From an uncultured bacterium (GTDB lineage: Bacteria; Zixibacteria; MSB-5A5; UBA10806): 64,000 nt of DNA. A program made the translations under genes and the position numbers. The DNA is taken from contig CBEUCH010000015.1 in assembly GCA_965541585.1 (NCBI GenBank), forward strand, positions 7,120-71,119. Direction: 5' to 3'. This document shows positions 32,882-55,765 of this stretch, one piece after another. Position 1 is the first letter of the stretch. Each line of letters starts with the position of its first letter. Under the pieces are notes generated by a model, which was given only the letters and a program-made list of their open reading frames with translations, did not search any database and was not told the DNA's origin.

Positions 32882-33281
32882 AATCTCTCCCGGCATTGGT
32901 GCTTTAATCTTCCGATGATCATTCCAAGTTCGAAAAAACAGGGTAGCGACGATTATGTCAAGCGCAAAAGCCGCTCTTATAGTATCTTCAGGATTGTCGA
33001 TAACTCTTGCAGAGAACAAAGGAGGAGCGAGGAAATGGAGGCTTGTTTCGAAGCAATTTTAAGAAAGCCGAAAGCGTCAAACGGCCTCTAAATAACCGAA
33101 GTAAAGACGATCGATGATTCACATACTTTCTCCATCCAATGAGGATATTTCATGACCACCCCTGAATAGTTGCTCGTTTTTTTTACTCGGTTGCATTTCA
33201 AGAGCTTGCCGTGCCTGCAGAAAAAGTGAGAACTCACTTGTGTCTTTTTTATTATTATCGTAACTTAAAATGTAGATTATT

Positions 33282-33367
33282 GCCGGAATGGCGGAATAGG
33301 TAGACGCAAGGGACTTAAAATCCCTCGGTCCGTATGGACTGTGCCGGTTCGATTCCGGCTTCCGGCA
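33282..33367 (+). tRNA. tRNA-Leu (anticodon TAA), class II with a long variable arm
   Basis: Hand fold. The acceptor is GCCGGAA/TTCCGGC, the anticodon loop CTTAAAA, the extra arm CGGTCCGTATGGACTG, and the T-arm GCCGGTTCGATTCCGGC. Confidence 0.8.
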
Positions 33368-33476
33368 TTATAAATCACTACGAGTGAACGGGTTGCAAAA
33401 TGTGCATCGCAACCCGTTTTTTGGTGGATTGTAGGCAAGTCCTACATGAGTCCACACTTTTTGCGGTTTTTACCAG

Positions 33477-34550
33477 TCAATAAGGAAGTTTTGCCACCAT
33501 GTCGGTCTTGTATTTTTCCGCAAGATGAGCGTATATTTCTGTGGTTTTGATGGAGGAATGACCCAATAGTTCCTTTATTGCGTATAGCGGCACTCCTGCC
33601 ATCGCAAGATGTGAGGCATAGGAAAAACGTAGGGAATGGCAGCTAGCCCAGTCCAGGCCTATCGAGGAACAGGTCTTACTGATTTTCCGGCTTACTGTAT
33701 CGGGTTTCCATTGTGGGAGTTCCTTTCCTTTTTCATCCCGGGAACCAAAAACTTTATTGTCTTTTCTCCTTTGAAGTGAACCAAGCATTTTCCCAAGACC
33801 ACTTTTTTTATCAAACCCAAGGTATCTATACCTTCTACTCTTCGAATTTGACGCCCTTATTGTAATCTGGCATTTATTGAAATCAATGTCATCCCAGGTT
33901 AATGATAAGGCCTCGCGAAGCCTAACGCCCGTCCATAAATAAAAATTCACAACATCTTGGAAAACAGTTCCTTCAAACGCTTCGCGTAACTTCTCAATTT
34001 CGTCTACTTCAAGATACTTTGGTCGAGGCGCACCTTGGCTCCGTAGCATTTTGATCCTTCTAAAAGGGCTCGTTTCCATTAGCCCCCAGCTAAGAGCGGT
34101 ATTAAATATTGCCTTAAGATGACGAAGCTCTAGATTTACCGTCGATTCTGAAATATGTGAGTTTTTTCTATTTGACGGCTGGCTGAGTCTGTGTCTAACA
34201 TAACCATCAACGAGGGCGCTATTGATTGTTTTCAATTCAACGTTTCCGATGTATTTCGCAAACAATCTCAATACTCTTTCTTCTCTGTTTAAAGTCGATG
34301 GCCTCTTTACAAGACTGCAGTGATTTAAATAATCACGCATAAAATCTTCGAGTAGAATATTCTCAAATTGCCCTACTGTAGATTTGCCTTCAACAAGCTG
34401 GCTGCAAAACTTATGGTACTCTTTTTGAGCAGTCCGTTTATCAACTTCACCGATTGTTTTTAATTGATCTCTGCCATTCAATCTGTAACGAATTACCCAC
34501 ACAGATCTCCCCGTCCTGTAATTTCTTTTTTGCAATGAGGCCATCAACAC
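33477..34550 (-). CDS. int: Tyrosine site-specific recombinase (phage integrase family)
   Basis: The C-terminal catalytic region has HSLRFSYASHLAMAGVPLYAIKELLGHSSIKTTEIYAHL (R..H..R..Y signature). The N-terminus has a SAM-like core-binding domain. Confidence 0.85.
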   Translation of the reverse strand: MLMASLQKRNYRTGRSVWVIRYRLNGRDQLKTIGEVDKRTAQKEYHKFCSQLVEGKSTVGQFENILLEDFMRDYLNHCSLVKRPSTLNREERVLRLFAKYIGNVELKTINSALVDGYVRHRLSQPSNRKNSHISESTVNLELRHLKAIFNTALSWGLMETSPFRRIKMLRSQGAPRPKYLEVDEIEKLREAFEGTVFQDVVNFYLWTGVRLREALSLTWDDIDFNKCQITIRASNSKSRRYRYLGFDKKSGLGKMLGSLQRRKDNKVFGSRDEKGKELPQWKPDTVSRKISKTCSSIGLDWASCHSLRFSYASHLAMAGVPLYAIKELLGHSSIKTTEIYAHLAEKYKTDMVAKLPY

Positions 34551-34874: not shown

Positions 34875-35339
34875 CTACGTTTGACTGCCTGACGGACTAT
34901 TTTTTAGTCCGTGGCCGAATTCGATGAACAATTTATTGGCATTGACCAGATGCTCAAACATGTCCCGCATATCGCCAATCAATCTCTCAAGCGATTTTCC
35001 GATTTCATCAACCGATTCGAACCTATGCTCCTTAGCTATATGATGAGATAAATTCCCAATGATGATCGTCCATTCATGCAAAAAACCTCGAGTGAGAGAT
35101 TCATAATTCTTCAGATCATCCAAGGATTGGAATTCTCTGGCTGAAGATGCGAGTTGATCCAGCCTGGGGAGGATGTAATCAGTATATGCTCGAACCGAGA
35201 TATACGTTTCGCCATTTTTATCCTCCAGGGCATCCGCGTCAGCAAGGATGTCCATCGCAGCTCTGCGCTGACTATCATCAAGGCGGAGCGCTTTAAAATG
35301 GTCTTCCAACAGTACGTGGAAATCGCCTTTATCTTTCAT
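34875..35339 (-). CDS. Hypothetical protein, member A of a divergent paralog pair
   Basis: It is alignable to the 35433..35924 product (DADALEDKNGETYISVRAYTDYI vs DKADALSQENEIEYISFKTYSTFM; the C-terminal regions are also collinear). It matches no known family. Confidence 0.4.
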   Translation of the reverse strand: MKDKGDFHVLLEDHFKALRLDDSQRRAAMDILADADALEDKNGETYISVRAYTDYILPRLDQLASSAREFQSLDDLKNYESLTRGFLHEWTIIIGNLSHHIAKEHRFESVDEIGKSLERLIGDMRDMFEHLVNANKLFIEFGHGLKNSPSGSQT

Positions 35340-35432
35340 TGTTTTACCTCCATTTTTGGTTTGTAAGAATGTCAGCGTTTTTTTAGGGTCGCCCTAGTCG
35401 CCGCAATAAAGACGGCGACTAGAGCAGTAAGG

Positions 35433-35924
35433 TTATTCGCATTCATGCAAGTTATGGCCTTCCGCGTAAGCCCTTAGGATCTCATCCGACGGAGGTGGGG
35501 CACCCATATCAAAGAGGATTTTGTGGCTGGATATGCAATGGTCGACCAGGCTTTTCAACTCAGAATTTACGGTCACCCACGCCTGAAAAAGGTCGCTCCT
35601 GATGGCACTATTACGTGGATCAACCGCCATGTTCATTATATCCACGCCGAATAACATCCATTCCTTCACCAGCTTGGCCGCCAGCGACGCATAAAAACTG
35701 TAGTCCTCCTCGGTCTGCGACTCAACTGCCATATTCTCCAATCCACTTAGGGCGTCATGCATAAATGTTGAATAGGTCTTGAATGAAATGTATTCGATTT
35801 CGTTTTCTTGGGATAAGGCGTCAGCTTTATCGAATACGGCACGGATTGATTTACGGCAATTGTCGCATTTTCCTTTAGTGTGGAGATCAAAAGGGATTAA
35901 GACGTCTTTTTCTAATCTTGTCAT
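35433..35924 (-). CDS. Hypothetical protein, member B of the paralog pair. The listed ORF extends to 35987; ATG 35924 has AAGGA 6 nt upstream.
   Basis: See 34875..35339. It adds an N-terminal CDNC Cys pair. Confidence 0.4.
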   Translation of the reverse strand: MTRLEKDVLIPFDLHTKGKCDNCRKSIRAVFDKADALSQENEIEYISFKTYSTFMHDALSGLENMAVESQTEEDYSFYASLAAKLVKEWMLFGVDIMNMAVDPRNSAIRSDLFQAWVTVNSELKSLVDHCISSHKILFDMGAPPPSDEILRAYAEGHNLHECE

Positions 35925-35998
35925 TTTTTTCCTTTCATTTTTGTACCCGGTCGCCTCATAGTGGTGGCGACAGGAACCTGATCGCATTCAAGTGCAAA

Positions 35999-36868
35999 TC
36001 AGACATCGTACATCGTGCCAGGGCCAACAAACCTTACCCTGATTTCCTTTATCCTTTCTCCCCAGCCTTCTACCTCACCGATCAAAGCTTCGACGTCGTA
36101 AGCACCATCGCCGAGCCCAGCTGGGATCAGAACCGCAATTCCTTCTCCTATCTGGTAGCCTCTCTTAAAGCCATCCACAATCTCTTGTATTGGATGGATA
36201 TCACTGTGGAAATGACATGGATCGAAGACCATGACATACCCGCTATCAACATTAATCTGGCCAATCGTGGTCCACATGTCCTCTACGGCTGTCTCCTTGT
36301 TCGTTGTCGCAGATACCGGTTCTCCTCCAGAGTGATATTTTTTCGCTGTTCCTTCACGCTTCCTGTTCTCAAGGAAGGAATCGACCCGTTTTTTCTCCTC
36401 GGGGATGAGCTTTCCAAGACGATCCTCAGCCTCTTCTAATGTCTTCAGATCTGCATCGAGCTCGCCATAAACATCGCGGTATTCATGAGCGAGATCCAGC
36501 CGCTTACCAGGGTCATCTTCCTGTAGCATCTTGCTGAAGGTTTCTTTTAGCTTAATTTCTTTTAACAAGGATAGGGTGGCCAATCGATAAGTAATGCCTC
36601 GAAGTTTACCGATGGAATTGATCGTATTAACTATTTTGGACGGCTCGATAATTCCCCTGCCAGTCTGCCCTGGGGACTTGAGTTCGCCCAGCTGTCCCAG
36701 AAGTAGGGACGATAAACGTATGTAATTGTTCTCGCCTATTCTGATAAGAGCGTCGTGAATTGAGGCTTGGATCTCCAGGGTTTTCTGATCAATGCCAGAT
36801 ACATTGGAGTAAGCTTCTGCCAACACGAGGTCGCCGAAAACATCAAGTAGTTTGTTTTGATTTTCCAT
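35999..36868 (-). CDS. Hypothetical protein (289 aa)
   Basis: The ORF is long and open, and tightly packed with its neighbours on the same strand. No motif is recognised (no GGDEF/CD-NTase/mCpol signatures were seen). Confidence 0.4.
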   Translation of the reverse strand: MENQNKLLDVFGDLVLAEAYSNVSGIDQKTLEIQASIHDALIRIGENNYIRLSSLLLGQLGELKSPGQTGRGIIEPSKIVNTINSIGKLRGITYRLATLSLLKEIKLKETFSKMLQEDDPGKRLDLAHEYRDVYGELDADLKTLEEAEDRLGKLIPEEKKRVDSFLENRKREGTAKKYHSGGEPVSATTNKETAVEDMWTTIGQINVDSGYVMVFDPCHFHSDIHPIQEIVDGFKRGYQIGEGIAVLIPAGLGDGAYDVEALIGEVEGWGERIKEIRVRFVGPGTMYDV

Positions 36869-36940: not shown

Positions 36941-37480
36941 CTACTTGACTGGCTCGGCGACAGGTGTCGCTCCTTCTTCCGGACCTCCATCCTCGGCAGA
37001 GTCGTTAGCTTCCAAATCGTCAAGCATCGCTCTTCGCTCAGCCTGTACGCGTTTCAAACCCTGCGTGGCATCTTCGAGATTCTTGCGGTGGCGTTCAAGA
37101 TCGGTCTCCAATGTGCTTTTCTCCCCGCGTAAACTGTAGATCTCGTCATCGGAGGTAGCGTCTTTAAGCAAGGCTTCGATTGCTTTTAGCCTCCGCTCTT
37201 TCTTCTTAATGATGTCAGGCAATCTTTTCAGATTCGATTTGAGGATGCCGATCTGTTTGGTATCCGCCAAGGTCTTGCCGGTCTTCGAGCGTTCGCTTAC
37301 TTTGGAATTGAATGCCCTCAGAACGTTGGCATCCCACTCCTCCAGGCAGATATGTGGCGCCCCGGCATACTCGAAGAGAATACCGGCTTTCGATGCCTCC
37401 TCGGTCACTTTATCAACATCAGAATATTCCCGAAGTTCGGCCAACTGTTGAATTGTTAAAATTGTCTTTGGGGATTTCAA
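36941..37480 (-). CDS. Hypothetical coiled-coil protein (179 aa)
   Basis: The central region is charged and heptad-like (KKKERRLKAIEALLKDA...LETDLERHRKNLEDATQGLKRVQAERRAML). Confidence 0.35.
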   Translation of the reverse strand: MKSPKTILTIQQLAELREYSDVDKVTEEASKAGILFEYAGAPHICLEEWDANVLRAFNSKVSERSKTGKTLADTKQIGILKSNLKRLPDIIKKKERRLKAIEALLKDATSDDEIYSLRGEKSTLETDLERHRKNLEDATQGLKRVQAERRAMLDDLEANDSAEDGGPEEGATPVAEPVK

Positions 37481-37859
37481 AGAAAACCTCCTATGATAAA
37501 AGTTAAATTTTCATTATCTCATCTACTTGATAGTAGAAACGGGTTGTAGTGGGGTTCCTCCTTTCAGTCAGCATTCATTGACGATTAATTGGTCCATCCT
37601 TAATAATGTGACCGGTCACGAAAGCTCGACTCCTTCCCTGATAATTTCAAAACCTCCGAGATTCACAGGGGCAATCGTTCCATCAGCGCTTGCACATTCT
37701 TCTAACTAAAAAATTATCGGGGTTCACAAAATATAATGGATGATGTAAGCCACTATCTTGTGCTATAAACACTTAGAGAGAAAAAATAATTATAAAAAAA
37801 AAGATAATATTTTATTTGTATTATTGGAGGCTAATTACGGAGAGATAAACTACAAAATA

Positions 37860-39758
37860 TCAGCGATCAGAGCGCCGATAAATCTTAAATATTGAACAAT
37901 AATAACCCATATCCCTATCGCATTCTATTAGATTTTCTTCTATTTTGAAAAAATGGCGCAATCGCTCATTTGTTTCTGAAATGTTTACTATTAAAGTGGC
38001 ATCAGTCTTCTTATAATGTAATATTCCGTTACTATCAGCCAGCTTACCCAGCACCTCTTCGTAAGGCCTAATTGAATTTCTTTTTGATTTTATATTCTGA
38101 AAACCCATCTCCTTAAACGTTCTAATTTCTGTTGGATGCTTTTTCCTAACATCATTGATATCAAATTTACATGAATCGTCTGCGAAACCAACTACAAGCT
38201 GCTTCCATTCAATTCCGGGTGGCAATATAAATGGGATTATTGAATCAATCGCTTCTTGTGGGATAGACGGTTTTTTCTCTTTGGCTTTTTGTTCTCTATC
38301 TATTAATAAACTATCTGGAAGTTCAGTCAAAGTGTTTTCATTATCATCAGCGAGGAGTACTGTTCGTTCAATTACTGACCGCAGTTCCCTTATGTTGCCC
38401 TCTTTCCAGCTGTGTAATTTTAGTTTCTTTAATAGATCTTTGGAAACTTTCCGGATATTTTTCCTGAATTGTTTCGAGAATTCAGCAATAAACAGGTTAA
38501 CAAACTTTTCAATATCGTCGCTTCTTTCTCTTAAAGGAGGTATATGTATCTCATAAGTATTTATCCGATGATAAAAATCCTCTCTCATAATGTTATTATC
38601 TATTAAGTGACGTGGTTTTTTGCTCAATGTCATAACTATTTTAATATCTGTTTTTATACTCTTGGTAAAGCCCTGTTCCTGTATTTCCCCCTTATCTAAA
38701 AACCTCAGCATCTTTCCCTGAAAATCATAAGGCATATCATTGACATTATCTAAAAATACTGTCCCTTTATCAGCCTGTTCAAAGATGCCCTTTTGATTGT
38801 GTATCCCTTCCAAAAAAGGTCTATTCTTGGCGCCGAATAGATAATACTCGAATGCAGCATTTGCAATCTCGGAGCAGTAAACAACATAGAACGGTTCCCT
38901 GTTTCTATTACTTTTGCCATGAAAATAGCGCGCAATAACATCTTTTCCGGTTCCGGGCTCACCGTTAAGTAATATGATTTTTGCTTCATCATACTTAGCG
39001 ATTTTTTCAACCTCTGATAAAACATTCTTAAAATTTGGAGCATCCCCGATTATAGTGAAAGGCTGATCAGCTATTTTCATAATTGCCGGTTTTGCCTGGT
39101 CAACATATGTCTGAATATTCCCGACGAGATCAGAATAACTGTCCGTATCTCCGAGAATATTAGCATACTTTTCACCAAGCCGGGCGAATGGGATTTCCTC
39201 AAGAGCGATATCGGCATTCTCACCCTTCCGCGGATAGAAATAATCTGGTGTCATGATGCCCTCGGGGTGTCGAAGGTAATAAAGATGATCTTGTTTTCTG
39301 CCTAATATTGTTAAGGCGAGTCCCAAATAAACGGACATTATTCTTCTTCCGCCCGCATATATACAGTGTAATTCTGTATCGGGGTCTTTTGTCAAGTTCC
39401 TAAGTAAATTCGCAATTTTATTCGCGGTCATTTCAAATTGTTCTGGAGTCTTTATATCATCCTGGATATTTCCTTTCTCATCTTCAATCATATAGATATC
39501 TTCTTCAGTAAATTTGGGGAATGTTTTATATTCCGCGCAAAACTTGCTGAAGACTTTGTTTTCGCCGAGTAAAGGGGGCATACCTGTTCTAGGATTACCC
39601 ATAAAGAGTTCGTCCCTGCCAATTGATGTTGTGATTAAGACTATTCTTTCAATATCGATGGGTCGCGGCCGTTTTCGGGTTCTAAAATACCAAAGCGACA
39701 GTGTTATAACGTTAGGGATGTTACCGAAGACGCCAAATAGCAAGTGCATCTTTTTCAT
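37860..39758 (-). CDS. Three-part protein: an N-terminal CARF-like Rossmann sensor domain, a degenerate sigma54-activator-type AAA+ core (GAFTGA absent, Walker B DE changed to DN), and a C-terminal 170-aa unknown domain with no Fis HTH
   Basis: The AAA+ core shows Walker A GEPGTGKDVIARYFH, an EYYLFG...RPFLEG segment replacing ESELFGHEKGAFTGA, Walker B VFLDNV, and IHIPPLRERSDDI plus SWKEGNIRELRSVIERTVLL (sensor II). The N-terminus has IVLITTSIG and IYAGGRRIMS, resembling CARF motifs hTLGTS and DxTSGTKAMS. Confidence 0.6.
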   Translation of the reverse strand: MKKMHLLFGVFGNIPNVITLSLWYFRTRKRPRPIDIERIVLITTSIGRDELFMGNPRTGMPPLLGENKVFSKFCAEYKTFPKFTEEDIYMIEDEKGNIQDDIKTPEQFEMTANKIANLLRNLTKDPDTELHCIYAGGRRIMSVYLGLALTILGRKQDHLYYLRHPEGIMTPDYFYPRKGENADIALEEIPFARLGEKYANILGDTDSYSDLVGNIQTYVDQAKPAIMKIADQPFTIIGDAPNFKNVLSEVEKIAKYDEAKIILLNGEPGTGKDVIARYFHGKSNRNREPFYVVYCSEIANAAFEYYLFGAKNRPFLEGIHNQKGIFEQADKGTVFLDNVNDMPYDFQGKMLRFLDKGEIQEQGFTKSIKTDIKIVMTLSKKPRHLIDNNIMREDFYHRINTYEIHIPPLRERSDDIEKFVNLFIAEFSKQFRKNIRKVSKDLLKKLKLHSWKEGNIRELRSVIERTVLLADDNENTLTELPDSLLIDREQKAKEKKPSIPQEAIDSIIPFILPPGIEWKQLVVGFADDSCKFDINDVRKKHPTEIRTFKEMGFQNIKSKRNSIRPYEEVLGKLADSNGILHYKKTDATLIVNISETNERLRHFFKIEENLIECDRDMGYYCSIFKIYRRSDR

Positions 39759-40343
39759 GTTTGGCTCTCCTTAAAAATGCTCCACGTACCTTGAATGTGA
39801 TATCTGCCTCTGATCTATTCTACATTTTCAATCGGGCGAGATCGCCTTTTCTAATCGCAAATTCATTTTAGCTCAAATCAGTAAGATTGTAAAGCGGATC
39901 TCGTAACGCTAAGTGTCTGATTCATCAAACTCTCCATTTATCGTATTAGAATAGCGCTTTTATGGCTTATTTCTAACGATTCTGTGGCCAATGCGATTTA
40001 TTATTTGCGTCACTATCATGTTTCTTCCCCCTCGTTTTTATGGCACCACGGCAAAGGCCTCTGAGGCGCAATCGCCAGCCGGTTTGCCATAGTATCCGCC
40101 GTTAACTCGATACGACTGATTTGCAATTCTATGTCTGCCAATGGCTTATGTTTGCTGCATCGGGGTCCGAAACCAACCCGACCATCTACCAACGACTTAT
40201 GGGGATCGACGGGTGGCCCCAGAGTGCCTCCGAAATTTCAAACCGCTCAGGGACGATTTTGGGCCGTCTTCTCGTGACATCGAAATTCCATAAAATCTAC
40301 ACTAAATCGAGCTAGCGGGAAGAAGAAAAAGTAAAAAAACATT

Positions 40344-40372
40344 TGACAAAGCTACAATGTTTTAGTATAATT
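40344..40372 (+). promoter_or_regulatory. Consensus sigma70 promoter giving a leaderless transcript for the XRE gene
   Basis: TTGACA, then 17 nt, then TATAAT. The predicted transcription start is at or about 1 nt before ATG 40378. Confidence 0.45.
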
Positions 40373-40377
40373 AGTAT

Positions 40378-40824
40378 ATGAAAGAAACCCCTGATTTGAA
40401 ATCGCTCCGTCTGGCGCAAAAGCTAACCTTGGCCGAAGTGGCACTACGCATGGACGTTTCCAAAGGTTTTGTATGCCATCTGGAGAACGGAATCAGAAGA
40501 CTAAACGATGATCTGACCAAGCGGCTGGCAGCGGCTCTGGACTGTCCGGAAAACGAGGTATGGAAAGCCAGCCAACGTTCTGGCGAAAAGAATACGATTT
40601 CCAATAGCTGGATCTCTCAGGTAAGGATCAATGGCTATCCAGTTTTCGATGCTTTCAAGTATCATCTTGAAGCGAAGAAGAAAAAACCTGATGTCAGAAA
40701 TAGGGCAAGGCTCAGAAAACAGCTCGCACAATTCATAAGTGAGAACCTGCCGTTTTCGGTGATGGCTGAACTTTCAGAGAATGACATATTGCTGGACCAG
40801 GTTGTTGAGCACTGCAAAAAGTAA
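40378..40824 (+). CDS. XRE-family HTH transcriptional regulator (repressor-like) with a C-terminal extension
   Basis: The HTH is LTLAEVALRMDVSKGFVCHLENGIRRLNDDLTKRLAAAL (Cro/C1 type). It is divergent from the minus-strand operon, as phage repressors usually are. Confidence 0.6.
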   Translation: MKETPDLKSLRLAQKLTLAEVALRMDVSKGFVCHLENGIRRLNDDLTKRLAAALDCPENEVWKASQRSGEKNTISNSWISQVRINGYPVFDAFKYHLEAKKKKPDVRNRARLRKQLAQFISENLPFSVMAELSENDILLDQVVEHCKK

Positions 40825-41241: not shown

Positions 41242-43767
41242 ATGTTTTGGGGCTTGAATATGAAGACTTTATCCAATTTAATTATTATGAACAGAAGTCT
41301 AATTTACGAGATTTTTTCACAACTTCAGGAAGGAGAGTACATCAGGTTAGCCTGGGAAGATAAAAATGAAGAGTTTCACTGGCAAGGAATAGACAACTAT
41401 GAACAATTTATAGCGAAAGTTAATGAATTAAGATCCAATCCCCATATAGCCAGTATCTGGTTTACGCCTCATCCGAGCAATTCGGAAACATCCCATGAAA
41501 ACGACAACGTTAAACATGTTCAATGGGTTTATGTCGATATCGATGATATTTCGACCGAAGATTTTATAAAGAACTACAATTTCATAAGACCAACATATAT
41601 TATTGCTACAGGTCACGGCGTTCAGCTTTATTGGCAGTTGAAGCAGCGTATAGCAGCACCTTTTGATGAATGGCGTTATGTCGAAAAGGCCATAGAGAAA
41701 AAGCTTAATGGAGAAAAAGGTTACCCTTGTGCTTTGCTTCGCGTTCCCGATACACCCAACAGAAAACATCTCATCGAGAAACATCGCAAAAAGGGATATA
41801 CAGTAGAAACCGATTGCAAGGTCATTGAATTTAATGATGTTGCCTACGGCCTTGATGATTTCATACAGGCCGGTTTGAAAATCAACGCTAAACCTGCTCC
41901 TACTATTCAAAGTAATGAATCTAAGCTGACAATCTCCGATCTAACGTGTATTCGTCAACACTGCGCTGCCGTAGACTCGGCGTTTAAATCTATTGAAAAT
42001 GACTCGGATAATGATAAAACGGCCGGTCACAATAAGCGTCTAACCGCTGCCAGCATCATAAAGCATACCGTTGATGATGAAGATTATGTGTTAAAGCTGT
42101 TCGGTAACACTGCTGATTTTAAAAAGGATGTCACGCTAAAGAACTATCAAAGTATAAAACAAAAACCAATCACTTGTAGGCAATTGCAGGAATGGAATCT
42201 TTGCTTCAAACCTTGCCAACTGATCCAAGACCTGAACAAGAAAAGCCCTATAGTATTTGCCTACCGCAAAGGAGTTCAGCTTAAGCGGACTAACGAATTA
42301 TTAAGCGACACTGAAAACGATGCCTGTTTTGAAGAACTTATGAAGCGGGCCAAAACAGTAGAAAATCCCGTTAATCAGTTAAAACTTATCAACAGAATAC
42401 AGGCTACAACCGGATTGAATAAAGCGGAAATCAGCCATTATATGCGTCGGGTCAAGGTTTTCGATGAATTAAATTCATATATAGTCAATGCCCAAGTGGA
42501 TCCTGTAAGAGCGGCAAAATACATAATCAAAAAATATCAACTGATGCGTTTTCAACAGGACTTTTATCAATTTGATGACGGCATATGGGAGCATAAACCG
42601 CAGGAAGAAACCGAATCACTTATTCATCACGAAATTGAAAAATACTCGGACAACCATACAATCAGCGAAGTCATTAACGCCGTAAAACGCGAATCATTGA
42701 TTACACATATACAAGTTGAGGATGCCCAGGATACTTATGTGATCGCGGCCGGTAACGGCTTATTAGATGTTCGTAATGACTCGCTTCGAGATTTTAAACC
42801 CGAAGATTATAGATTTGGGAAAATGGGTGCTGGTTATAATCCCGATGCCGATTGTCCGGCATTTAAGGATTTCATTAAAGAGCTGTTTCTTTTTGATGTT
42901 GACGCGTCAGATAAAAGGCTATTGGTGCAGGAGATATTTGGATATCTTTTAATCCCTGATTATACTTTGATAAAAAAGATGTTTTATTTCTACGGCCCTA
43001 AAGCCAACAACGGCAAATCCAGCCTAATTGAAATCATCCGATCGATTATGGGACCGGGCTACTTTGACAGCGTTCCTATGGATAAAATGAATGGTTTTCT
43101 GTTAAAACGCCTAATGGGAAAACATGCAAACGTCGTAGGAGATCAGGATGCTTACACTAAAGTTCCTGATGGAGTATTGAAACAGCTTATTGGCGGCATG
43201 GACGAAATTACCGCAGATGTGAAGTATAAAGATGCAATTAGCTTTATCAATCATGCCAGGCTGATATTCGCAGTAAACAAACTCCCATATTCTGAAGCGA
43301 AGGATGAGGGATACTTTACCAGGGCGGTTATTCTAACATTCAACAATCAATTTCTTATTAATCCAGACAAGAAGGATCCGCGGCAGATGAAAGCTGATAT
43401 TGAAAAGATACAGTACATAAAGGATAACGAAAAGGAGGGCATCCTAAATTGGATGCTGGAAGGTTTGAAAAGGCTATTGGTAAATAAGAAATTGACAATC
43501 CCGGCAACTTCGGCAACTGCCTTGAAGGACTACAAAACGAACAATAACAGCATATTACTATTTGTTAGTGATAGATGTCAGCTTGGATCATCATTTGAAG
43601 TGAGTCAATCTGAGTTGTATACCGATTATAAGGCATGGTGCTTAGATCAGGGATTTAAATTCTATGCAAATGCAATTACTTTCTGTGATCTACTTGAGCG
43701 GGAGTATAACGTAGCCCGCCAGAGGAATAAAAATTCACGACAGCTGTTAGGAATTCAAATGGCATAA
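41242..43767 (+). CDS. Primase-polymerase / D5-like helicase replication protein (phage/plasmid primase, P4 family C-terminal domain)
   Basis: The C-terminal NTPase has Walker A FYFYGPKANNGKSS and the surrounding conservation of the P4 alpha / poxvirus D5 family. The N-terminal half resembles a bifunctional prim-pol domain. Confidence 0.65.
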   Translation: MFWGLNMKTLSNLIIMNRSLIYEIFSQLQEGEYIRLAWEDKNEEFHWQGIDNYEQFIAKVNELRSNPHIASIWFTPHPSNSETSHENDNVKHVQWVYVDIDDISTEDFIKNYNFIRPTYIIATGHGVQLYWQLKQRIAAPFDEWRYVEKAIEKKLNGEKGYPCALLRVPDTPNRKHLIEKHRKKGYTVETDCKVIEFNDVAYGLDDFIQAGLKINAKPAPTIQSNESKLTISDLTCIRQHCAAVDSAFKSIENDSDNDKTAGHNKRLTAASIIKHTVDDEDYVLKLFGNTADFKKDVTLKNYQSIKQKPITCRQLQEWNLCFKPCQLIQDLNKKSPIVFAYRKGVQLKRTNELLSDTENDACFEELMKRAKTVENPVNQLKLINRIQATTGLNKAEISHYMRRVKVFDELNSYIVNAQVDPVRAAKYIIKKYQLMRFQQDFYQFDDGIWEHKPQEETESLIHHEIEKYSDNHTISEVINAVKRESLITHIQVEDAQDTYVIAAGNGLLDVRNDSLRDFKPEDYRFGKMGAGYNPDADCPAFKDFIKELFLFDVDASDKRLLVQEIFGYLLIPDYTLIKKMFYFYGPKANNGKSSLIEIIRSIMGPGYFDSVPMDKMNGFLLKRLMGKHANVVGDQDAYTKVPDGVLKQLIGGMDEITADVKYKDAISFINHARLIFAVNKLPYSEAKDEGYFTRAVILTFNNQFLINPDKKDPRQMKADIEKIQYIKDNEKEGILNWMLEGLKRLLVNKKLTIPATSATALKDYKTNNNSILLFVSDRCQLGSSFEVSQSELYTDYKAWCLDQGFKFYANAITFCDLLEREYNVARQRNKNSRQLLGIQMA

Positions 43768-44932: not shown

Positions 44933-46483
44933 ATGGCGAAAAAGGATATCAAAAAGAATTCCGAAAGTTTCGAAAAAACACTATTTAAAGCAGCGGACAA
45001 ATTAAGAAAAAACATAGACGCGGCTGAGTATAAGCATATTGTACTCGGCCTTATTTTTTTGAAGTATATTTCTGACTCATTTGAGGAATTACACATAAAC
45101 CTCCTGGCAGGCAAAGGCGAATACAAAGGAGCCGATCCTGAAGATGCCGATGAATACCGTGCTGAGAATGTCTTCTGGGTTCCCAAGGTTGCTCGCTGGT
45201 CGCATCTTCACTCACGAGCCAAACAGCCAACTATCGGAAAAGATGTTGACGATGCAATGGAGGCAATCGAAAAAGAGAACAAGACCCTCAAAGGTATCCT
45301 CCCCAAAGTTTTCGCCAAACCAAATCTCGACAAGACTTCATTAGGTGGGCTGATTGACATGATCGGCAACATTGCTCTTGGTGATGAGGCTTCAAAGAGC
45401 AAAGATATACTTGGTCGAGTCTATGAGTATTTTCTTGGCGAATTTGCTTTGGCAGAAGGCAAGAAAGGCGGACAGTTCTTTACTCCCAAGTCAATCGTCC
45501 AGACTATGGTCGAAATGATCGCACCCTACAAGGGCAGGGTATTTGACCCCTGCTGTGGTTCTGGCGGAATGTTTGTAATGAGTGAGAAGTTCGTTGCCAG
45601 CCATAAAGGTAAGGTCAACGATATTTCCATATACGGTCAGGAAAGCAACCAGACTACTTATCGCTTGTGCAGAATGAACCTGGCATTGCGTGGCATCGAT
45701 GGCTCGCAGGTTAAGTGGAACAATGAAGGCTCCTTTCTAAAGGATGAACACAGGGACTTGAAGGCCGATTTCATTCTGGCTAATCCGCCATTCAATGATA
45801 GTGACTGGAGCGGTCAACTCCTGAGAAAAGACCCTCGTTGGCAGTACGGCGCACCACCCACTGGGAATGCCAACTATGCGTGGATGCAACACATGATTTA
45901 TCATTTGTCCCCAAAAGGGATTATGGGATTGGTGCTTGCCAATGGGTCGCTCTCTTCGAATACATCTGGCGAAGGGGACATCCGTAATAGTATTATAGGT
46001 GCTGACTTGGTGGATTGCATTGTCGCTCTGCCAAAGAATCTTTTCTATAACGTCACTATTCCTGCGTGCCTTTGGTTTCTTTCCCGTAAACGGACAGGCA
46101 ATGGTAATAGGAAACGCTCGGGCGAGATTCTTTTCATAGATGCTACCGAAGTAGGCCACATGATTGATCGCACTCATCGGGTGTTTACCGATGAGGATGT
46201 GTTGAGACTTGCCAACACCTACCATGAGTGGAGAAAAGAGAATGGCAACTATGAAGATATCAAGGGCTTTTGCAAATCTGCCGCACTCAAGAACGTAGAA
46301 AAGCACAAATTCGTCCTCACACCAGGGCGTTATGTCGGCATTCCCGACGAAGAAGATGACGGTATTCCTTTTGATGAAAAGATGAAATCGCTTACTGGTG
46401 AATTGGCCCAACAAATGTCAGACGAAAAGCGGCTCGATAGTGAGATACAGAAGCAGCTAAAGAATGTCGGGTATAACATTTAG
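44933..46483 (+). CDS. hsdM: Type I restriction-modification system DNA methyltransferase subunit
   Basis: It has the HsdM N-domain ([15 protein letters not shown]), AdoMet motif I ([13 protein letters not shown]) and motif IV (NPPF, in [12 protein letters not shown]). Confidence 0.85.
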
Positions 46484-46503
46484 CCGAGAACTAACTTGAG
46501 GTT

Positions 46504-47367
46504 ATGGCAAAATTAGGCATTTCAGAGTTTTCATTCAGCTTTTCTTTTCTGCATGAGCAGGTAAATAGAAATGGTAGACCATTCTGTGTTCCTGTATTAC
46601 CCTCTCTGCGTAGAGAATCTGATGTAGGGTATGATGCTAAGCTTCCTAAAAAGGGGATTGACTACTATTTCCAATTCAAAATGAGTGATTACTTGCGAGG
46701 TGGAAATGCCAAATTTATTAAGGATGGCACATATAGAAGTCTTTACTATCGAATTGCTCTGCATAAGGCCAAGAAGAACAAACAGCACAATCTTCTCTAT
46801 ATGCTTTCTCAAAAGAACCCATATGTTTACTACGTTGCACCTAAGCTAAGAACAGATCAGTCATTTTATGATGCTTGTGTAAGAAGGTTAGTTACGGTGA
46901 GTTCAATGATGATTCCAGTGGATTCCTGTGGTTATGTCAGCGATTCGCTTCAACACTTTGTGACATATCCAGAATTTGGCTATGAGTGGCATTTCCATTC
47001 AAAGCCCAAGCGATTTGATAATGCAATTGAAGGGGAGCGGATAGTTTCGCACTTCGCAGAAAGTTCTAAGAACTGGGTGGCTATCAACAAGGAATTCGCT
47101 TTGAATGTTTATGAACGAATAAAGCAATCAACATATGTATATCAGAGTGGTGATTTTGAAGGGATAGAAGATAATACGAGGAAAGCTATAGGCGATGACA
47201 AAAGATTAGGTATCGTAGGCGTAGAAACCAAAAAGCCAACTTTCAATGTTGAAGAGTTCTTTGATCGGAATATAAAAAAGTCAGATACTTTTACGATATT
47301 GCAGAGAGCATCCGCTATTGCGATGATGTTATATGGTTCAGCACTGATGATAGTCGGTGAAAACTAA
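46504..47367 (+). CDS. Hypothetical protein inserted between hsdM and hsdS
   Basis: It is a 287-aa open frame within the R-M operon, with 20-bp gaps either side. No motif is recognised. Confidence 0.4.
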   Translation: MAKLGISEFSFSFSFLHEQVNRNGRPFCVPVLPSLRRESDVGYDAKLPKKGIDYYFQFKMSDYLRGGNAKFIKDGTYRSLYYRIALHKAKKNKQHNLLYMLSQKNPYVYYVAPKLRTDQSFYDACVRRLVTVSSMMIPVDSCGYVSDSLQHFVTYPEFGYEWHFHSKPKRFDNAIEGERIVSHFAESSKNWVAINKEFALNVYERIKQSTYVYQSGDFEGIEDNTRKAIGDDKRLGIVGVETKKPTFNVEEFFDRNIKKSDTFTILQRASAIAMMLYGSALMIVGEN

Positions 47368-47372
47368 CAATT

Positions 47373-48542
47373 ATGAACAAGACTGATTCAAAGCAAATAC
47401 CTGATGGATGGAAAGAAACAACATTGGGAGCACTTGTTACCTTTCAACGTGGTCATGATTTGCCGAGATCTAAAATGGTTGATGGTTCTTTTCCAATCAT
47501 GGGGTCAAATGGTATTATTGGATTTCATAACCAAAGTACAACAAAAGCTCCAGGCGTGACAATCGGTAGAAGTGGTAATATTGGAAGAGCCTTTTTAGTG
47601 AAAAGAGATTATTGGGCGCATAACACAACATTATATTCCAAACAGTTTCATGATTCGGATCCTGTTTTTGTATATTATTTAGTGAAAAACCTAAAATTTG
47701 AAAGATTCAATTCGGGTAGTGCTGTTCCAAGTTTAAATAGAAACTTCATTCATCCGATTCAGCTAAATGCTCCAATTATCTTTGAACAAAAAGCCATTGC
47801 CAGGGTTTTATCCTCTCTCGATGACAAGATTGAGTTGCTACGCAAGCAGAATGAAACCCTTGAAGCGATAGCACAGACAATCTTCAAAGAGTGGTTTGTG
47901 AACTTCAACTTCCCTGACAAAAATGGAAAGCCGTTCAAGGACGGCGGCGGCAAGATGATCGACTCCGAGCTGGGCGAGATTCCTGACGGGTGGAGAGTGG
48001 GTAAACTCGGCGACGAGTTTGGCATACTAATGGGGCAATCGCCACCTGGAACAAGCTACAATGAAGAAAGCGAAGGGGTTGTATTTTTTCAGGGCAGAAC
48101 TGATTTTCAAGAACGATTTCCAAAAGTTAGGCTCTATACAACAGAACCCAAGAGAATCGCTGAAGCATTTGATGTATTGGTAAGCGTAAGAGCACCAGTC
48201 GGTGATGTTAATGTTGCCATTGAAACCTGCTGCATTGGTCGAGGTCTAAGCTCTGTAAGAGGACAGCAACAATCCTACACATTGTACAAAATGAAGTTTT
48301 TGGGAGACGTATTGCGACGATTCGATGCAGAAGGGACAGTTTTTGGGTCAATTAGCAAAGATGATTTCAAGAGTATTGAAGTCCTGACACCGATGGAAGA
48401 ATGGATAAACTCATTTGAGAACACAGTCAATCCATTGGATCAGAAAATACTCTCAAATTATAAGCAAATACAAACATTAACTCGACTACGAGACATTCTG
48501 CTGCCCAAGTTGATGAGTGGGCAGGTGAGGGTGAGGATGTAG
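47373..48542 (+). CDS. hsdS: Type I R-M specificity subunit with two target-recognition domains
   Basis: The central conserved coiled region ELLRKQNETLEAIAQTIFKEWFVNFNFPD and the repeated TRD architecture are present. It is 389 aa. Confidence 0.8.
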   Translation: MNKTDSKQIPDGWKETTLGALVTFQRGHDLPRSKMVDGSFPIMGSNGIIGFHNQSTTKAPGVTIGRSGNIGRAFLVKRDYWAHNTTLYSKQFHDSDPVFVYYLVKNLKFERFNSGSAVPSLNRNFIHPIQLNAPIIFEQKAIARVLSSLDDKIELLRKQNETLEAIAQTIFKEWFVNFNFPDKNGKPFKDGGGKMIDSELGEIPDGWRVGKLGDEFGILMGQSPPGTSYNEESEGVVFFQGRTDFQERFPKVRLYTTEPKRIAEAFDVLVSVRAPVGDVNVAIETCCIGRGLSSVRGQQQSYTLYKMKFLGDVLRRFDAEGTVFGSISKDDFKSIEVLTPMEEWINSFENTVNPLDQKILSNYKQIQTLTRLRDILLPKLMSGQVRVRM

Positions 48543-48557
48543 AAGGAGGGAATCAAA

Positions 48558-48923
48558 ATGGAAAGGTATATTCTAACAACCTATGATAAGAACAGATTAA
48601 GCTCCTATCCTATGATAATTTCAATACACGGTAAATCGTGGTGTTGTAAGCAGGCTCGAATCCTTGTTCAAAGTATGGATGGTGGTTTCATAACTGCTAA
48701 CTGTATGAAATGTAATAATAAAACGAATGTATTGATTGACGAATTTCAATCTTTTGATAGAGACGTAAACTGTCCCAAATGTGGTATGGTTATGTCTCCT
48801 GCTTATGTCCCTGATGGAAGTAAAATTGAAGAACGTAACTATGGTTTTAAGTGCATGAAATGTGATATTTATATATGGGCATCTGATTTAATTCCATATT
48901 ATGAAGATTTTCCATATAGATAA
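48558..48923 (+). CDS. Small zinc-ribbon protein (four CxxC pairs) inserted between hsdS and hsdR
   Basis: CC-KQ, CMKCNNK, CPKCGM and CMKCD motifs are present. AGGAGGG lies 6 nt before ATG 48558. Confidence 0.4.
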   Translation: MERYILTTYDKNRLSSYPMIISIHGKSWCCKQARILVQSMDGGFITANCMKCNNKTNVLIDEFQSFDRDVNCPKCGMVMSPAYVPDGSKIEERNYGFKCMKCDIYIWASDLIPYYEDFPYR

Positions 48924-48931
48924 TAAGAAAC

Positions 48932-51900
48932 ATGACAAGAGACAAAATCACAGAAGATGCAGTCGAACAGGTAGCCATAGAGCTACTCGAAGAGCAGGGA
49001 TACCACTACCTCACTCCCGAACAGTGGGAGGCTGAACGAGGGGACCTATCCAATGTTCTCTTGAGGGATCGTCTGAAAACTGCCATTGATAAACTTAACC
49101 CGATAATTCCGCAGGAAGCGAAAGAACAAGCCTTACGAGTAGTGTCGAATCTTCCCAGTCAGAATTTGGTGGAGAACAACGAGACGTTTCATCGGATGTT
49201 GACCGATGGAATTGACGTTGAATATATGGGAGATGATGGCATTAAAGGTGATAAGGTCTGGCTTATTGATTTCAAAGAACTCACCGAAAATGACCTGGTC
49301 GTTTGTAATCAGTTTACGGTTATCCAGGACAGCCTCAACAAACGCCCAGACGTGGTGCTGTTTGTTAATGGATTGCCACTTGTTGTGATAGAGTTGAAAA
49401 ATCCAGCTGATGAAAACGCTACTGTTAAGAAAGCATATACCCAGCTCCAGAATTACAAGAACGCAATCCCCAATCTGTTTTATTATAATGGAATTTTAAT
49501 AGCTTCTGATGGCCTGGACGCAAAGGTTGGATCATTGACTGCAGGTTGGTCTCGGTTCATGGTCTGGAAAACGAGCGATGGAGCCAAGGAAGATAAGGTC
49601 ACTATTCCTCAAATGGAAACCGTCATCAGAGGTATGCTGAGACCCGATGTACTGTTTGACCTTATAAAGCAGTTCACTGTCTTTGAAAAAACCAAAAAAG
49701 AGGACACCAAGACCAGATTCACAACAATAGAAACAGCTAAGAAGATAGCGGCATATCACCAGTATTATGCCGTCAAGAAAGCAGTTGAATCTACCAAGCG
49801 GGCCGCCAGTGATAATGGAAGTAGAAAAGGTGGCGTTGTCTGGCATACGCAAGGCAGCGGTAAATCTCTTTCCATGGTGTTCTATTCAGGACAGACAGTA
49901 TTAGAACTTGATAACCCAACGATTGTAGTAATTACCGATAGAAATGATCTTGATGATCAGCTATTTGATACTTTCGCGGGTTGTAAACAGCTATTAAGAC
50001 AAGAGCCAGTACAGGCGGAGAATCGGGAACACCTAAAAAAACTACTCAAGGTTGCTGGCGGCGGTATCGTATTCACGACAATTCAGAAGTTCTCGCCTGA
50101 AGACGGCGGAGATGTATTTGATCTATTATCTGACAGAAAAAACATCGTTGTAATAGCCGACGAAGCCCATAGGAGCCAGTACGGATTCGGCGCCAAGACT
50201 ATCGTGCGAAATAATGAAGCATATACCAGTTATGGCTTCGCTAAGTATCTCAGGGATGCCCTTCCAAAAGCGACCTTCATTGGATTTACAGGCACACCTA
50301 TTGAAAAAGAAGACAGATCAACGCGAGCAGTCTTTGGCAATGAAATTGATATCTATGATATTTCTCAGGCTGTCAAAGACGGAGCAACTGTTCGTATTTA
50401 CTATGAATCCCGATTAGCTAAAGTCCACCTGAAACCCGAGGAGAAAGATAAGCTCGACGCTGAAGTTGAAAGAATAACTGAAGGTGAAGAATCGACTGCG
50501 AAGGAAAAGGCAAAAGCCAAATGGACTCAACTCGAAGCAATAGTTGGGCATCGGGATAGGCTAAAATCTGTCGCCAAAGATATTATCGATCATTTTGAGA
50601 GGCGGGAGGAAGTATTTGACGGTAAGGCCCTAATTGTGACTACGAGCCGTCGCATAGCTGTTGAGTTATACGAAAAAATAATGGCCTTACGTCCACATTG
50701 GCATGGCGACGATAAGAGAAAAGGCGAGATCAAGGTAATAATGACCTCCAGTTCCAGCGATCCTCAAAGCTGGCAAAAGCATAATACAACAAAGCAGGAC
50801 AGAAAAGACATTGGGGAAAGGTTCAAAGACCCGAATGATAGGCTGAAATTCGTTATAGTTAGGGATATGTGGCTTACAGGCTTTGATGCCCCTTGTCTCC
50901 ACACCATGTACGTTGATAAGCTGATGCGAGGACATAACCTAATGCAGGCCATAGCGCGCGTGAATAGGGTTTTCAAAGATAAACCTGGCGGCCTCATTGT
51001 TGACTATATCGGAATTGGATACGATCTCAAAAAAGCGATGGCAACCTATTCTGAAAGCGGTGGGGAGGGTGAACCAACTTTGGATATTGATGAAGCTATC
51101 GCGACAATGCTGGAGAAGTACGAAATCGTTGCTCAAATGTTTGATGGTTTTGATTATAAGCGATATTTTACAGCCAATACTAAAGACAAGATGACAATCA
51201 TCTTGGAAGCCCAGGAGCATATTCTCGGTCTGGACGACGGCAAGAACAGATTTGTAAGACAGGTGATTCTGCTTTCAAAAGCCTTTGCCCTATCCGTGCC
51301 AAATGAAGAGGCAATGGCGATTAAGGATGATATTGGCTTCTTTCAAACGGTAAAGGCTCGTCTCACGAAATTCACTCCAACAGGAGGCGGTAAGTCTGAC
51401 GAGGAGATAGAAACAGCAATACGGCAGATTGTCGATAAAGCCATAGTTTCAGAAGGAGTAGTCGATATATTTGCTGCTGCTGGTATCAAGAAGCCTGATA
51501 TTTCGATATTGTCGGATGAATTTATGGCTGAAATTAAAGGTATGAAACGAAAGAACCTAGCTTTTGAATTATTAAAGAAAATCTTGTCCGACGAAATCAG
51601 GCTCAGATTGACCAGAAACCTAATTCATGGCAAAAAGCTATCTGAACTGTTGGAAAACGCTATTAAGAAATACCAGAATAACCTCCTGACCGCGTTTCAA
51701 GTTATTGAAGAATTGATTGAACTGGCTAAACACATCAAGTCCGAAGATGAGCGCGGCAAAGAGATGAATTTGTCCGCAGATGAAATTGCATTCTACGATG
51801 CTTTGGCAGATAACGATAGCGCAAAAGAAGTTCTCGGCGATGACACACTACGAGAGCTTGCTAGAATATTGGTCGAGAAAGTTCGCGCTAATACGTCAAT

Positions 51901-52054: not shown

Positions 52055-52154
52055 ATGTCAGGAATTTATTTATGAATATTTTGAACCAAACATAACTTGA
52101 AGTCCACGAGCAGAAGATAAAAACAAAATAGGCGAGGTTTGGGGGGAATGACAT

Positions 52155-54647: not shown

Positions 54648-54817
54648 GTGTTGAATTGGATGAACCTCATCACAGTTTTGTGGATATTATAGCGCAGTTG
54701 TTTTGCTCGGAAGATATCTGGCTTTGAAAAAGGTTCGAACATCCTTATCCGAATCGATCATTATGGTATAACTCGCCCCGTTTAATAGCCGACGATGGTG
54801 CCATCAGTAACTTCAGG

Positions 54818-54843
54818 CCGCCTCCATTTGATGGTATAAGAAT
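54818..54843 (+). promoter_or_regulatory. Promoter-like direct repeat copy 1 (GCCGCCTC-N-TTGATGGTATAAGAA; extended -10 TGgTATAAG)
   Basis: It lies about 170 bp upstream of the GIY-YIG gene. A near-identical element is found at 57037..57063. Confidence 0.35.
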
Positions 54844-55743: not shown

Positions 55744-55765
55744 GTAATACAGAAGGAGGTTTGTA

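Follow-up and report, generated by a model that had tools for sequence, protein, structure and literature searches.

CARF domains are sensors, and their known outputs are nucleases, deaminases, proteases and membrane effectors. The CARF5 domains of Cad1 bind cyclic tetra- or hexa-adenylate (cA4 or cA6; PMC12669630, PMC12825302). Type II Panoptes combines mCpol with CARF-TM, a CARF protein with a transmembrane (TM) region, and there cyclic tri-adenylate (cA3) keeps the effector off (PMC13577387). The order of a CARF domain, an AAA+ domain and a helix-turn-helix (HTH) is already known from RtcR and the RtcR_PspF groups, and the CARF survey of 2014 reported RtcR-like proteins next to restriction-modification (R-M) systems (PMC4012209). 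RtcR is the only CARF-containing enhancer-binding protein (EBP) that was found in the searchable literature. Atypical EBPs that have no GAFTGA loop act with sigma70; VpsR has a Walker B motif that reads ND, shows no ATPase activity, is sigma70-dependent and needs cyclic di-GMP (PMC6158489). Here we describe a gene from an uncultured bacterium of the Zixibacteria. It lies in a stretch of 64,000 nucleotides (GenBank assembly GCA_965541585.1, contig CBEUCH010000015.1) that was analysed as a whole and is referred to as the window. The gene (37860..39758, minus strand) was characterised by its open reading frame (ORF) and translation, by domain hidden Markov models (HMMs) and by the ratio of nonsynonymous to synonymous substitution rates (dN/dS), and it encodes a 632-aa protein with a CARF domain, a sigma54-type AAA+ core and a C-terminal domain. 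With moderate confidence, we read this protein as a CARF-gated, atypical (sigma54-independent) EBP-type transcription regulator that derives from CRISPR-associated CARF-containing bacterial EBPs (CARF-bEBPs) and serves as a control gene of an island integrated at a tRNA-Leu gene.

The CARF sensor domain occupies residues 1–225 (39084..39758, minus strand) and is of the CARF5/Cas_NE0113 type. Pfam places Cas_NE0113 (PF09623) on residues 15–186 with an E-value of 2.5e-18 and 67.1 bits against a gathering threshold (GA) of 23, and the NCBIfam model TIGR02584 (cas_NE0113) scores 96.9 bits against a cut-off of 80.65. In PADLOC the best CARF match is CARF5--CARF_TM (4.9e-39), with CARF5--CARF at ~1e-38, over residues 5–231. 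The domain shows a Rossmann-like CARF fold. An earlier, sequence-only reading of this DNA had proposed a CARF domain from two motifs, IVLITTSIG (residues 39–47) and IYAGGRRIMS (residues 133–142). Three HMM libraries and the fold agree with that proposal, and both motifs, which correspond to the two ligand-pocket motifs of CARF domains (TT..G after the beta1 region, and GGR+xM), include residues (T43, T44, G47, G136, G137 and R138) that are invariant in an alignment of seven family members, CRISPR-linked as well as mobile-element-linked. The N terminus is thus not a receiver, GAF or PAS fold, which that reading had weighed as the alternative together with housekeeping roles for intact relatives; the intact relatives are linked to CRISPR loci or mobile elements. 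A PDB sequence search with the CARF domain gave nothing meaningful, only one fragment came out of a word-indexed search restricted to this domain, and an exact look-up for the window protein was negative. The nearest relative is publicly annotated merely as a "TIGR02584 family CRISPR-associated protein". No transmembrane region is present in the 632-aa sequence.

The sigma54-type AAA+ core and its lid span residues 236–496 (38271..39053, minus strand), with Sigma54_activat (PF00158) on residues 236–405 (1.8e-42) and AAA_lid_14 (PF25601) on residues 410–495 (1e-18). The PADLOC model RtcR_PspF2--CARF_AAA_HTH matches the AAA+ part only (1.9e-62), and the NCBIfam bEBP equivalogs match only residues ~225–496, all far under their cut-offs. 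The domain assignments of the 632-aa protein are far above chance. An identity as RtcR was rejected: NF038308 reaches 176 bits against a cut-off of 650, in the AAA+ part only, and there is no rtcA or rtcB nearby.

The motifs of the core were placed in an alignment of 18 sequences, the window protein and 17 relatives, with canonical bEBPs for column placement. All motifs listed by the sequence-only reading (GEPGTGKD, RPFLEG, VFLDN, the two CARF motifs, IHIPPLRERSDDI and NIRELRSVIERTVLL) are found in the translated ORF, and the alignment upholds its description of a bEBP-type core without GAFTGA and without the Walker B Glu. The Walker A motif GEPGTGKD (residues 266–273; 38940..38963, minus strand), the MREDFYHRI sequence of the arginine-finger (R-finger) region and the GNIRELRS of sensor II are all retained, and because these three are intact the core would still bind ATP. 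RPFLEG (residues 313–318; 38805..38822, minus strand) sits exactly in the columns of the sigma54-contacting GAFTGA loop. The Walker B motif, within VFLDN (residues 334–338), has changed from DE to DN (D337-N338; 38745..38750, minus strand), with N338 in the column of the Glu. The sensor I Asn has become Ser, and the Asn of the conserved VNC motif has become Tyr (VYC). In PspF-type bEBPs, the VNC Asn partners the Walker B Glu in a "glutamate switch". Combined, these changes predict nucleotide binding without efficient hydrolysis and no productive contact with sigma54. The Fis-type HTH (HTH_8, PF02954) has no match in the window protein and is present in the relatives P0004, P0006 and P0007. A canonical sigma54 activator was rejected as an identity, as GAFTGA, the Walker B DE, the Fis HTH and a -24/-12 promoter were all tested and are absent.

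In a set of 5.8 billion clustered proteins, Cas_NE0113 and PF00158 occur together in only a handful. Genome and metagenome scans gave a few additional relatives, all from the Fibrobacterota-Chlorobiota-Bacteroidota (FCB) group: Zixibacteria, Bacteroidota and Kryptonia. No relative was found in 2.9 million IMG/VR viral contigs or 50,697 phage records. An intact group, made up of the proteins P0004, P0006 and P0007 and the loci L015, L017, L018 and L023–L027, has GAFTGA, FLDE and the Fis-type HTH_8. In Kryptonia and relatives, a type III-A csm operon has the intact gene at its 3' end, and type I cas genes come directly after it. This position between the two kinds of CRISPR genes is seen in L006 (2543–19059) and L017 (3411–19817) as well as in L015, L018 and L022–L027. 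The CRISPR-linked intact CARF-bEBPs (P0006, P0007, L015, L017 and L018) are without the first Arg of the R-finger motif FRxDLYYR, for example LPDFYNRI, and this Arg is retained in the MREDFYHRI of the window protein.

The degenerate group consists of the window protein, P0002/P0152 (76% identical), P0003 (45%) and P0005 (42%). In these proteins GAFTGA is replaced by RPFLEG, YSPNSG or DVPSQV, the Walker B motif is DN or DD, HTH_8 is missing, and a new C-terminal domain is present. The same C-terminal domain is found in P0123 and P0125 behind GAFTGA-less sigma54-type AAA+ cores that have no CARF domain. Across the 18 sequences, GAFTGA is absent without exception wherever the new C-terminal domain occurs, and the Walker B motif of the proteins with this domain is DN, DD or ND, with DE once. 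Every HTH_8 protein retains GAFTGA and DE.

The DNA around the genes was scanned for sigma54 promoters of the form TGGCAC-N5-TTGCA, with GG and GC required and scored out of 11. A 10/11 match is located 100–170 nt past the stop codon at seven of the 10 intact loci (L003, L015, L017, L018, L023, L024 and L025). No sigma54 site follows the degenerate genes (window, L001, L012 and L004), and no site scoring at least 10/11 occurs anywhere in the 64-kb window, flanking intergenic regions included. The clade of the window protein has lost GAFTGA, DE, the Fis HTH and the downstream sigma54 promoter together. In L003, the sigma54 promoter stands directly before a homologue of a 179-aa gene that lies downstream of the CARF gene in the window, and repeated CCGATAT..TCGTCAC elements precede the promoter. 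This position makes the downstream partner cluster the probable target of regulation in the lineage on mobile elements. In Kryptonia and related Bacteroidota metagenome-assembled genomes (MAGs), a strong sigma54 promoter, TGGCATAGTGTTTGCA, is found ~100 nt past the stop codon of the intact CARF5-bEBP. This arrangement suggests an induction of type I CRISPR in Kryptonia-type loci that is driven by cyclic oligoadenylate (cOA) and dependent on sigma54, a bacterial analogue of Csa3 crosstalk.

Because sigma54 promoters lie downstream of the intact relatives, and because the clade switches its DNA-binding domain and its promoter type together, the comparative evidence favours a transcription regulator over the effector that the sequence-only reading had put forward. 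Quite unlikely is a non-transcriptional AAA+ switch or effector, in which a CARF ligand would drive an ATP-locked ring acting on a target that the C-terminal domain recognises. A Walker B change from Glu to Asn is, as is well established, the classic substrate-trap configuration of AAA+ proteins, and the C-terminal domain has no sequence match to any DNA-binding family and is negative in Foldseek. However, every characterised AAA+ protein of the PF00158 subfamily regulates transcription. In the nearest relatives the core is joined to HTH_8 and a sigma54 promoter lies after the gene, and the same C-terminal domain occurs by itself in neighbourhoods of recombinases and repressors.

The C-terminal domain covers residues 505–632 (128 aa; 37863..38246, minus strand) and belongs to a rare family that Pfam does not cover; these residues had no match in Pfam, in PHROGs or among PDB sequences. 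The sequence-only reading had announced a novel C-terminal domain of 170 aa; the domain is shorter, ~128 aa after a short linker. Run exhaustively against 1.84 billion representatives, phmmer detected the domain in 13 proteins. A profile brought in another 21, all of them short hypothetical proteins in which Pfam recognises no domain. Members of the family include L009 6001–6363, L010 6001–6579, P0128, P0130 and P0132–P0151, and the domain is absent from plasmid records. It is fused to several different N termini and also occurs in standalone proteins of 120–200 aa. One standalone homologue lies beside a serine recombinase and a LexA-like repressor (L009), and another beside a tyrosine integrase (L010, L011). 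Because they adjoin such genes, the standalone members are candidate small regulators of mobile elements. The structure model of the domain has a pLDDT of 85, and an identity as a divergent OmpR/PhoB-like winged helix is moderately supported. A DNA-binding module fits the recombinase and repressor neighbourhoods of the standalone copies. The sequence-only reading held that the protein has no DNA-binding domain, which is unlikely in view of this prediction.

Divergence along the gene is strikingly uneven. Compared with the sister-element copy in L012 (6154–8058), the AAA+ core, including RPFLEG and FLDN, is 93–100% identical with a synonymous divergence (dS) of ~0.25, whereas the CARF domain is ~55% identical with saturated dS (>1.9) and the C-terminal domain 55–80% identical. 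This mosaic pattern suggests a modular or recombinational exchange of sensor and output modules around a conserved core. Against the L012 and L001 genes, dN/dS is 0.09–0.15 for the CARF domain, 0.16 for the AAA+ core and 0.30 for the C-terminal domain. At least four lineages, 42–76% identical, retain the degenerate architecture, and it is found on at least 10 contigs. Since dN/dS is low in all three domains and the conservation is clade-wide, the gene is not a relic, and an identity as a pseudogene was rejected. If the gene were a CARF-bEBP in decay and without function, drift would account for the loss at once of GAFTGA, the Walker B Glu, the Asn of the glutamate switch and the sensor I Asn, but this reading is effectively refuted by the intact 632-codon frame, by dN/dS values of 0.09–0.31 in every domain, by the recurrence of the architecture across lineages and by the near-identity of the core.

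The fast divergence of the CARF domain relative to the core bears on a further alternative, an anti-defence decoy in which the CARF domain acts as a sponge or ring nuclease against the type III cOA of the host and the AAA+ ring is a multimerisation scaffold only. The NCBI name of TIGR02584, "CRISPR-associated ring nuclease Csm6", points in this direction, as does a gene on a mobile element with no cas genes nearby. A sponge, however, would need neither an AAA+ core at 93–100% identity nor a C-terminal domain under purifying selection. The sister elements seem to encode a signal synthase and not a signal destroyer, and the viral contigs and phage records hold no relative. We consider a decoy very unlikely.

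In every contig of the P0002/P0152 type, the CARF gene is preceded by a 270-aa gene, with 23 nt between the two. It is located at 5319–6131 in L012, 573–1385 in L001, 469–1281 in L002, 6743–7555 in L045 and 5107–5919 in L046, and it is also present in L021, L037 and L047; in L012/L045 it adjoins RKX17686.1. Its motifs GDIDNLG, SGEELF and SISFGCA align with ADVDNLG, SGGDDL and LSAGIA of the Kryptonia Cas10 Palm2 domain. The sole hhalign match, between residues 42–111 and Cas10 residues 589–665, is weak (E 0.014, probability 3%). Among 1104 open frames, the three-motif pattern, which was designed post hoc, occurs only in Cas10 proteins and the 270-aa protein. The spacing from D44 to E96 is 52 residues, equal to that from D11 to D63 in Cst mCpol (PMC13577387). 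The 270-aa protein has no match in Pfam, PADLOC or PDB, and for the genes of the sister elements no function emerged from Pfam, PHROGs or PADLOC. The 270-aa gene is a likely candidate for a Palm cyclase, the signal synthase of these elements. With a Cas10-Palm-like gene directly upstream in the sister elements, a signalling role is plausible, and relatives do have a genomic link to a signal synthase, as Cas10 in L006 and L017 and as the Palm-like gene in L012 and L045. The window itself does not contain the 270-aa gene: tblastn was negative, and 278 unrelated nt stand in its place.

These data also bear on a Panoptes-like guard, in which the decoy nucleotide of an mCpol-like cyclase would hold the CARF protein off. 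Once phage sponges or phosphodiesterases had depleted this nucleotide, the protein would activate downstream genes with a toxic or defensive role; under such a scheme, the copy in the window would be a remnant or use another nucleotide source. The position of the 270-aa gene 23 nt upstream of a degenerate CARF-AAA gene in L001, L002, L012, L021, L037 and L045–L047 agrees with such a guard, as do the match of its motifs to Cas10 Palm2, in exactly the region of the sole hhalign match, the restriction of the three-motif pattern to Cas10 and the 270-aa protein, and the mCpol-like spacing of 52 residues. In addition, the best PADLOC match, CARF5--CARF_TM, has an architecture like that of the type II Panoptes effector (PMC13577387), and the island carries defence cargo. 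However, the Palm assignment is weak by the hhalign probability, by the lack of Pfam, PADLOC and PDB matches and by the post hoc design of the pattern, and the window has no cyclase gene, so that by Panoptes logic the effector would be permanently on. The gene lies in the regulatory backbone of the element and not among its defence cargo, and the mCpol partners that have been published are effectors of the 2TM and HEPN kinds, with no AAA+ or HTH protein among them (PMC12657218). A guard of this kind appears unlikely.

For the atypical CARF-gated regulator that we favour, the following mechanism is proposed. The CARF5 domain would bind a signal of the cOA type, as Cad1, Csm6 and CARF-TM lead one to expect. 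Because GAFTGA has become RPFLEG, the Walker B DE has become DN and the Asn of the glutamate switch has become Tyr, the core would neither contact sigma54 nor hydrolyse ATP efficiently and would serve as an oligomerisation or allosteric scaffold and not as a motor, by analogy with VpsR and TyrR. The C-terminal domain, in place of the Fis HTH, would bind DNA as a divergent OmpR/PhoB-like winged helix. The protein would control sigma70-type promoters of the partner-gene cluster that runs towards the integrase, and possibly also the divergent XRE/primase module; these targets are suggested by the position of the sigma54 promoters in the intact relatives. In the sister elements, the Cas10-Palm/mCpol-like upstream gene probably makes the ligand, and the window copy, from which this gene is missing, would have to rely on a signal from another source in the cell. 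More tentatively, it is possible that integrative elements of the FCB group carry a self-contained cyclic-nucleotide circuit, composed of a minimal Cas10-like cyclase and a CARF sensor with an AAA+ core that is ATP-locked and independent of sigma54 and with a new winged helix, that converts the presence or loss of a cOA into transcription, with the window copy as an orphan receiver.

Several results weigh against this mechanism. A Foldseek search of the C-terminal model against PDB gave nothing below E 0.2, the profile of the C-terminal family found no sequence in PDB, and hhalign of the family against PhoB/OmpR sequences aligned only an "RLR" helix, with a probability of 0.1%. The Walker B Asp of P0003 and P0005 may permit hydrolysis, so that the description as non-hydrolysing may not hold for the whole clade. 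A sigma54 site was not found in the scanned stretch at the intact loci L005, L006 and L027. The 64-kb window holds no ORF with Palm motifs, no cyclic-nucleotide synthase and no type III CRISPR that could supply a signal. None of Pfam, PHROGs and PADLOC assigned a function to the four genes downstream, and no convincing operator repeats were found, so that no operator was identified.

The left end of the integrated element is marked by a tyrosine integrase gene (33477..34550, minus strand; PF00589, phrog_1) beside the tRNA-Leu gene (33281–33368, plus strand). At this end the GC content drops from ~0.49 to ~0.41, and the left flank is ordinary chromosome with proteins sorted by the type IX secretion system, purD and glgA. 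Downstream of the CARF gene lies the conserved partner gene (36941..37480, minus strand), whose 179-aa product has a coiled-coil C-terminal half. Its homologues follow the CARF-AAA gene in L001 (69% identical), L012 (49%) and L003 (50%), and searches of Pfam, PHROG, PADLOC and PDB sequences gave no family match. Three further co-directional genes of 289, 184 and 154 aa (34875..36868, minus strand) have weak paralogue or homologue matches to the downstream genes of L001. The C terminus of the 289-aa protein is matched by phrog_5209, and the protein has no meaningful PDB sequence match. The genes past the partner (34875–35339 and 35433–35987; L001 4296–5210 and 6515–7006) form a small paralogous family of ~150–185 aa with ~25% identity, and its copy number varies across the sister elements. 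The sequence-only reading placed the CARF gene at the head of a six-gene operon. The gaps in the co-directional cluster of six genes are 379, 72, 11, 93 and 324 nt, and a terminator-like hairpin from a consensus scan covers the CARF stop codon (37858..37880, minus strand), although such sites are no commoner than in shuffles. The gaps and the hairpin speak against one operon, which was rejected.

Upstream of the CARF gene, a consensus scan shows a sigma70-like promoter candidate, TTTACA-17-TAAAAT (39865..39893, minus strand). A divergent gene for an XRE-family HTH protein (40378–40824; PF01381) and its promoter from a promoter scan (40343–40371) together span 40343..40824 on the plus strand. 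This promoter matches the sigma70 consensus at 12 of 12 positions (TTGACA-17-TATAAT), and as it ends 7 nt before the ATG, the mRNA may be leaderless. An XRE homologue with 69% identity has the same position in L012. The replication module contains a D5_N/DUF5906 primase-helicase (41242..43767, plus strand; Pfam, and PHROG DNA primase at 6.6e-76), and L003, L012 and L045–L047 have the same backbone. An order in which the primase, DUF5659 and XRE genes diverge from the CARF-AAA and partner genes is common to the window, L003 (a Bacteroidales MAG), L012 (a Zixiibacteriota MAG) and L045–L047. This recurring backbone indicates that the CARF-AAA gene belongs to the regulatory core of an integrative mobile element with defence cargo. 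By analogy only, the layout resembles that of phage-inducible islands, with integrase and regulator on one side and XRE and primase on the other.

The defence cargo lies to the right (44933–61964). It includes a type I R-M system (hsdM, a 287-aa gene, hsdS, a 121-aa gene and hsdR), followed by an 830-aa AAA_13 protein that is PADLOC PDC-S06 and has PrrC-like similarity. Further cargo encodes a GIY-YIG/RAMA protein (PDC-S14) and a 1304-aa superfamily 1 helicase (PDC-S68, E = 0). The sequence-only reading had set the gene inside a defence island: R-M, PDC-S06, PDC-S14 and PDC-S68 are indeed nearby, but the gene itself is in the backbone of integrase, regulators and primase, and the defence genes are cargo further right. 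Its remark that there is no CRISPR locus nearby is correct, as the 64-kb window contains no array and no cas genes. No att direct repeat of the tRNA-Leu end is present inside the window, which puts the right end of the island beyond the 64 kb.

Between the divergent promoters, a GC-rich non-coding stretch (40037–40300) is 73–80% conserved in three elements. It aligns with L012 4728–5075 and L001 101–329, contains no convincing ORF and could hold operators, an origin or an unannotated RNA; a search of the conserved intergenic stretches with Rfam gave nothing. Upstream of the partner gene, a perfect 12-nt palindrome, GTGACCGGTCAC (37608–37619, minus strand), is conserved in L001 and L012, and L003 has a different palindrome at this place. 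A GGAGG(N)AACCC block ~60–90 nt before the partner start codon (region 37540–37640, minus strand) is conserved in all four elements.

The relatives form an evolutionary series. It begins with CRISPR-embedded CARF-bEBPs that apparently drive sigma54 promoters before type I cas genes, passes through the intact gene of L003 on a mobile element and ends in a degenerate clade that is without sigma54 coupling, the Walker B Glu (Asp in two members) and the Fis HTH and has gained a different DNA-binding-like domain. If the proposed mechanism is true, cOA signalling serves mobile elements in gene control and is not confined to killing by hosts, and with the sister elements transcription factors join the known partners of mCpol-like cyclases. 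The self-contained circuit, if true, would be a "transcriptional Panoptes" that fires island genes on depletion by a phage, or an induction switch that reads the antiviral alarm of the cell. The window copy, with its cyclase lost and its CARF domain strongly diverged, would then listen to signals made by the host, for example by type III CRISPR. The analysis also yields a new rare family of probable DNA-binding domains, fused and standalone, and a natural "ATP-locked" EBP core conserved at 93–100% identity. The searchable literature gave no cOA-type CARF5 bEBPs placed as a link from type III to type I CRISPR loci, no derivatives of them on mobile elements in which a new domain has taken the place of the Fis HTH and of sigma54 coupling, and no Palm-cyclase partner for a regulator of the CARF-bEBP type.

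Among known systems, Csa3, a CARF-winged-HTH transcription factor that links type III cOA to type I CRISPR, is an archaeal protein from another CARF clade; it has no AAA+ domain, and CRISPR loci encode it. Cad1 pairs CARF5 with an adenosine deaminase, so that its effector is a deaminase and not an AAA+ regulator, and its gene lies in type III CRISPR loci. Type II Panoptes resembles the sister elements in joining a CARF sensor to a small Palm-type gene, which in the sister elements is a likely candidate for a cyclase. Its output is at the membrane, however, whereas the window protein has an AAA+ core and a putative DNA-binding domain, with neither a TM region nor a cyclase. RtcR, the activator of the rtcBA RNA-repair operon, and the RtcR_PspF groups of PADLOC share the order of CARF, NtrC-like AAA+ and DNA-binding domain. 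RtcR has a divergent CARF domain, an intact GAFTGA and a Fis HTH and is sigma54-dependent, and the window protein matches the RtcR models only in the AAA+ part. The CRISPR-associated proteins that combine Cas_NE0113 with a sigma54 AAA+ core and HTH_8 (for example in Ca. Kryptonium thompsonii, L017; P0006 and P0007), which carry no annotation beyond the TIGR02584 family name, have the same CARF5 and AAA+ subfamily, with 39–42% identity over ~500 aa, and are clearly, by this comparison, the ancestral stock of the window protein. They have GAFTGA, DE, a Fis-type HTH, a csm/cas context and mostly a sigma54 promoter, whereas the window protein is without all of these and lies on a mobile element. 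The atypical EBPs (VpsR, TyrR, PhhR, HupR, HsfA and NtrX) share with it a sigma54-type AAA+ core without a functional GAFTGA, and the likeness to VpsR extends to a degenerate Walker B motif (ND) in a protein that lacks ATPase activity, depends on sigma70 and is gated by a cyclic nucleotide (PMC6158489). These EBPs have REC, ACT or PAS inputs and a Fis-type HTH and act in housekeeping regulons, whereas the window protein combines a CARF input with a different, probably OmpR-like, output fold in the context of a mobile element.

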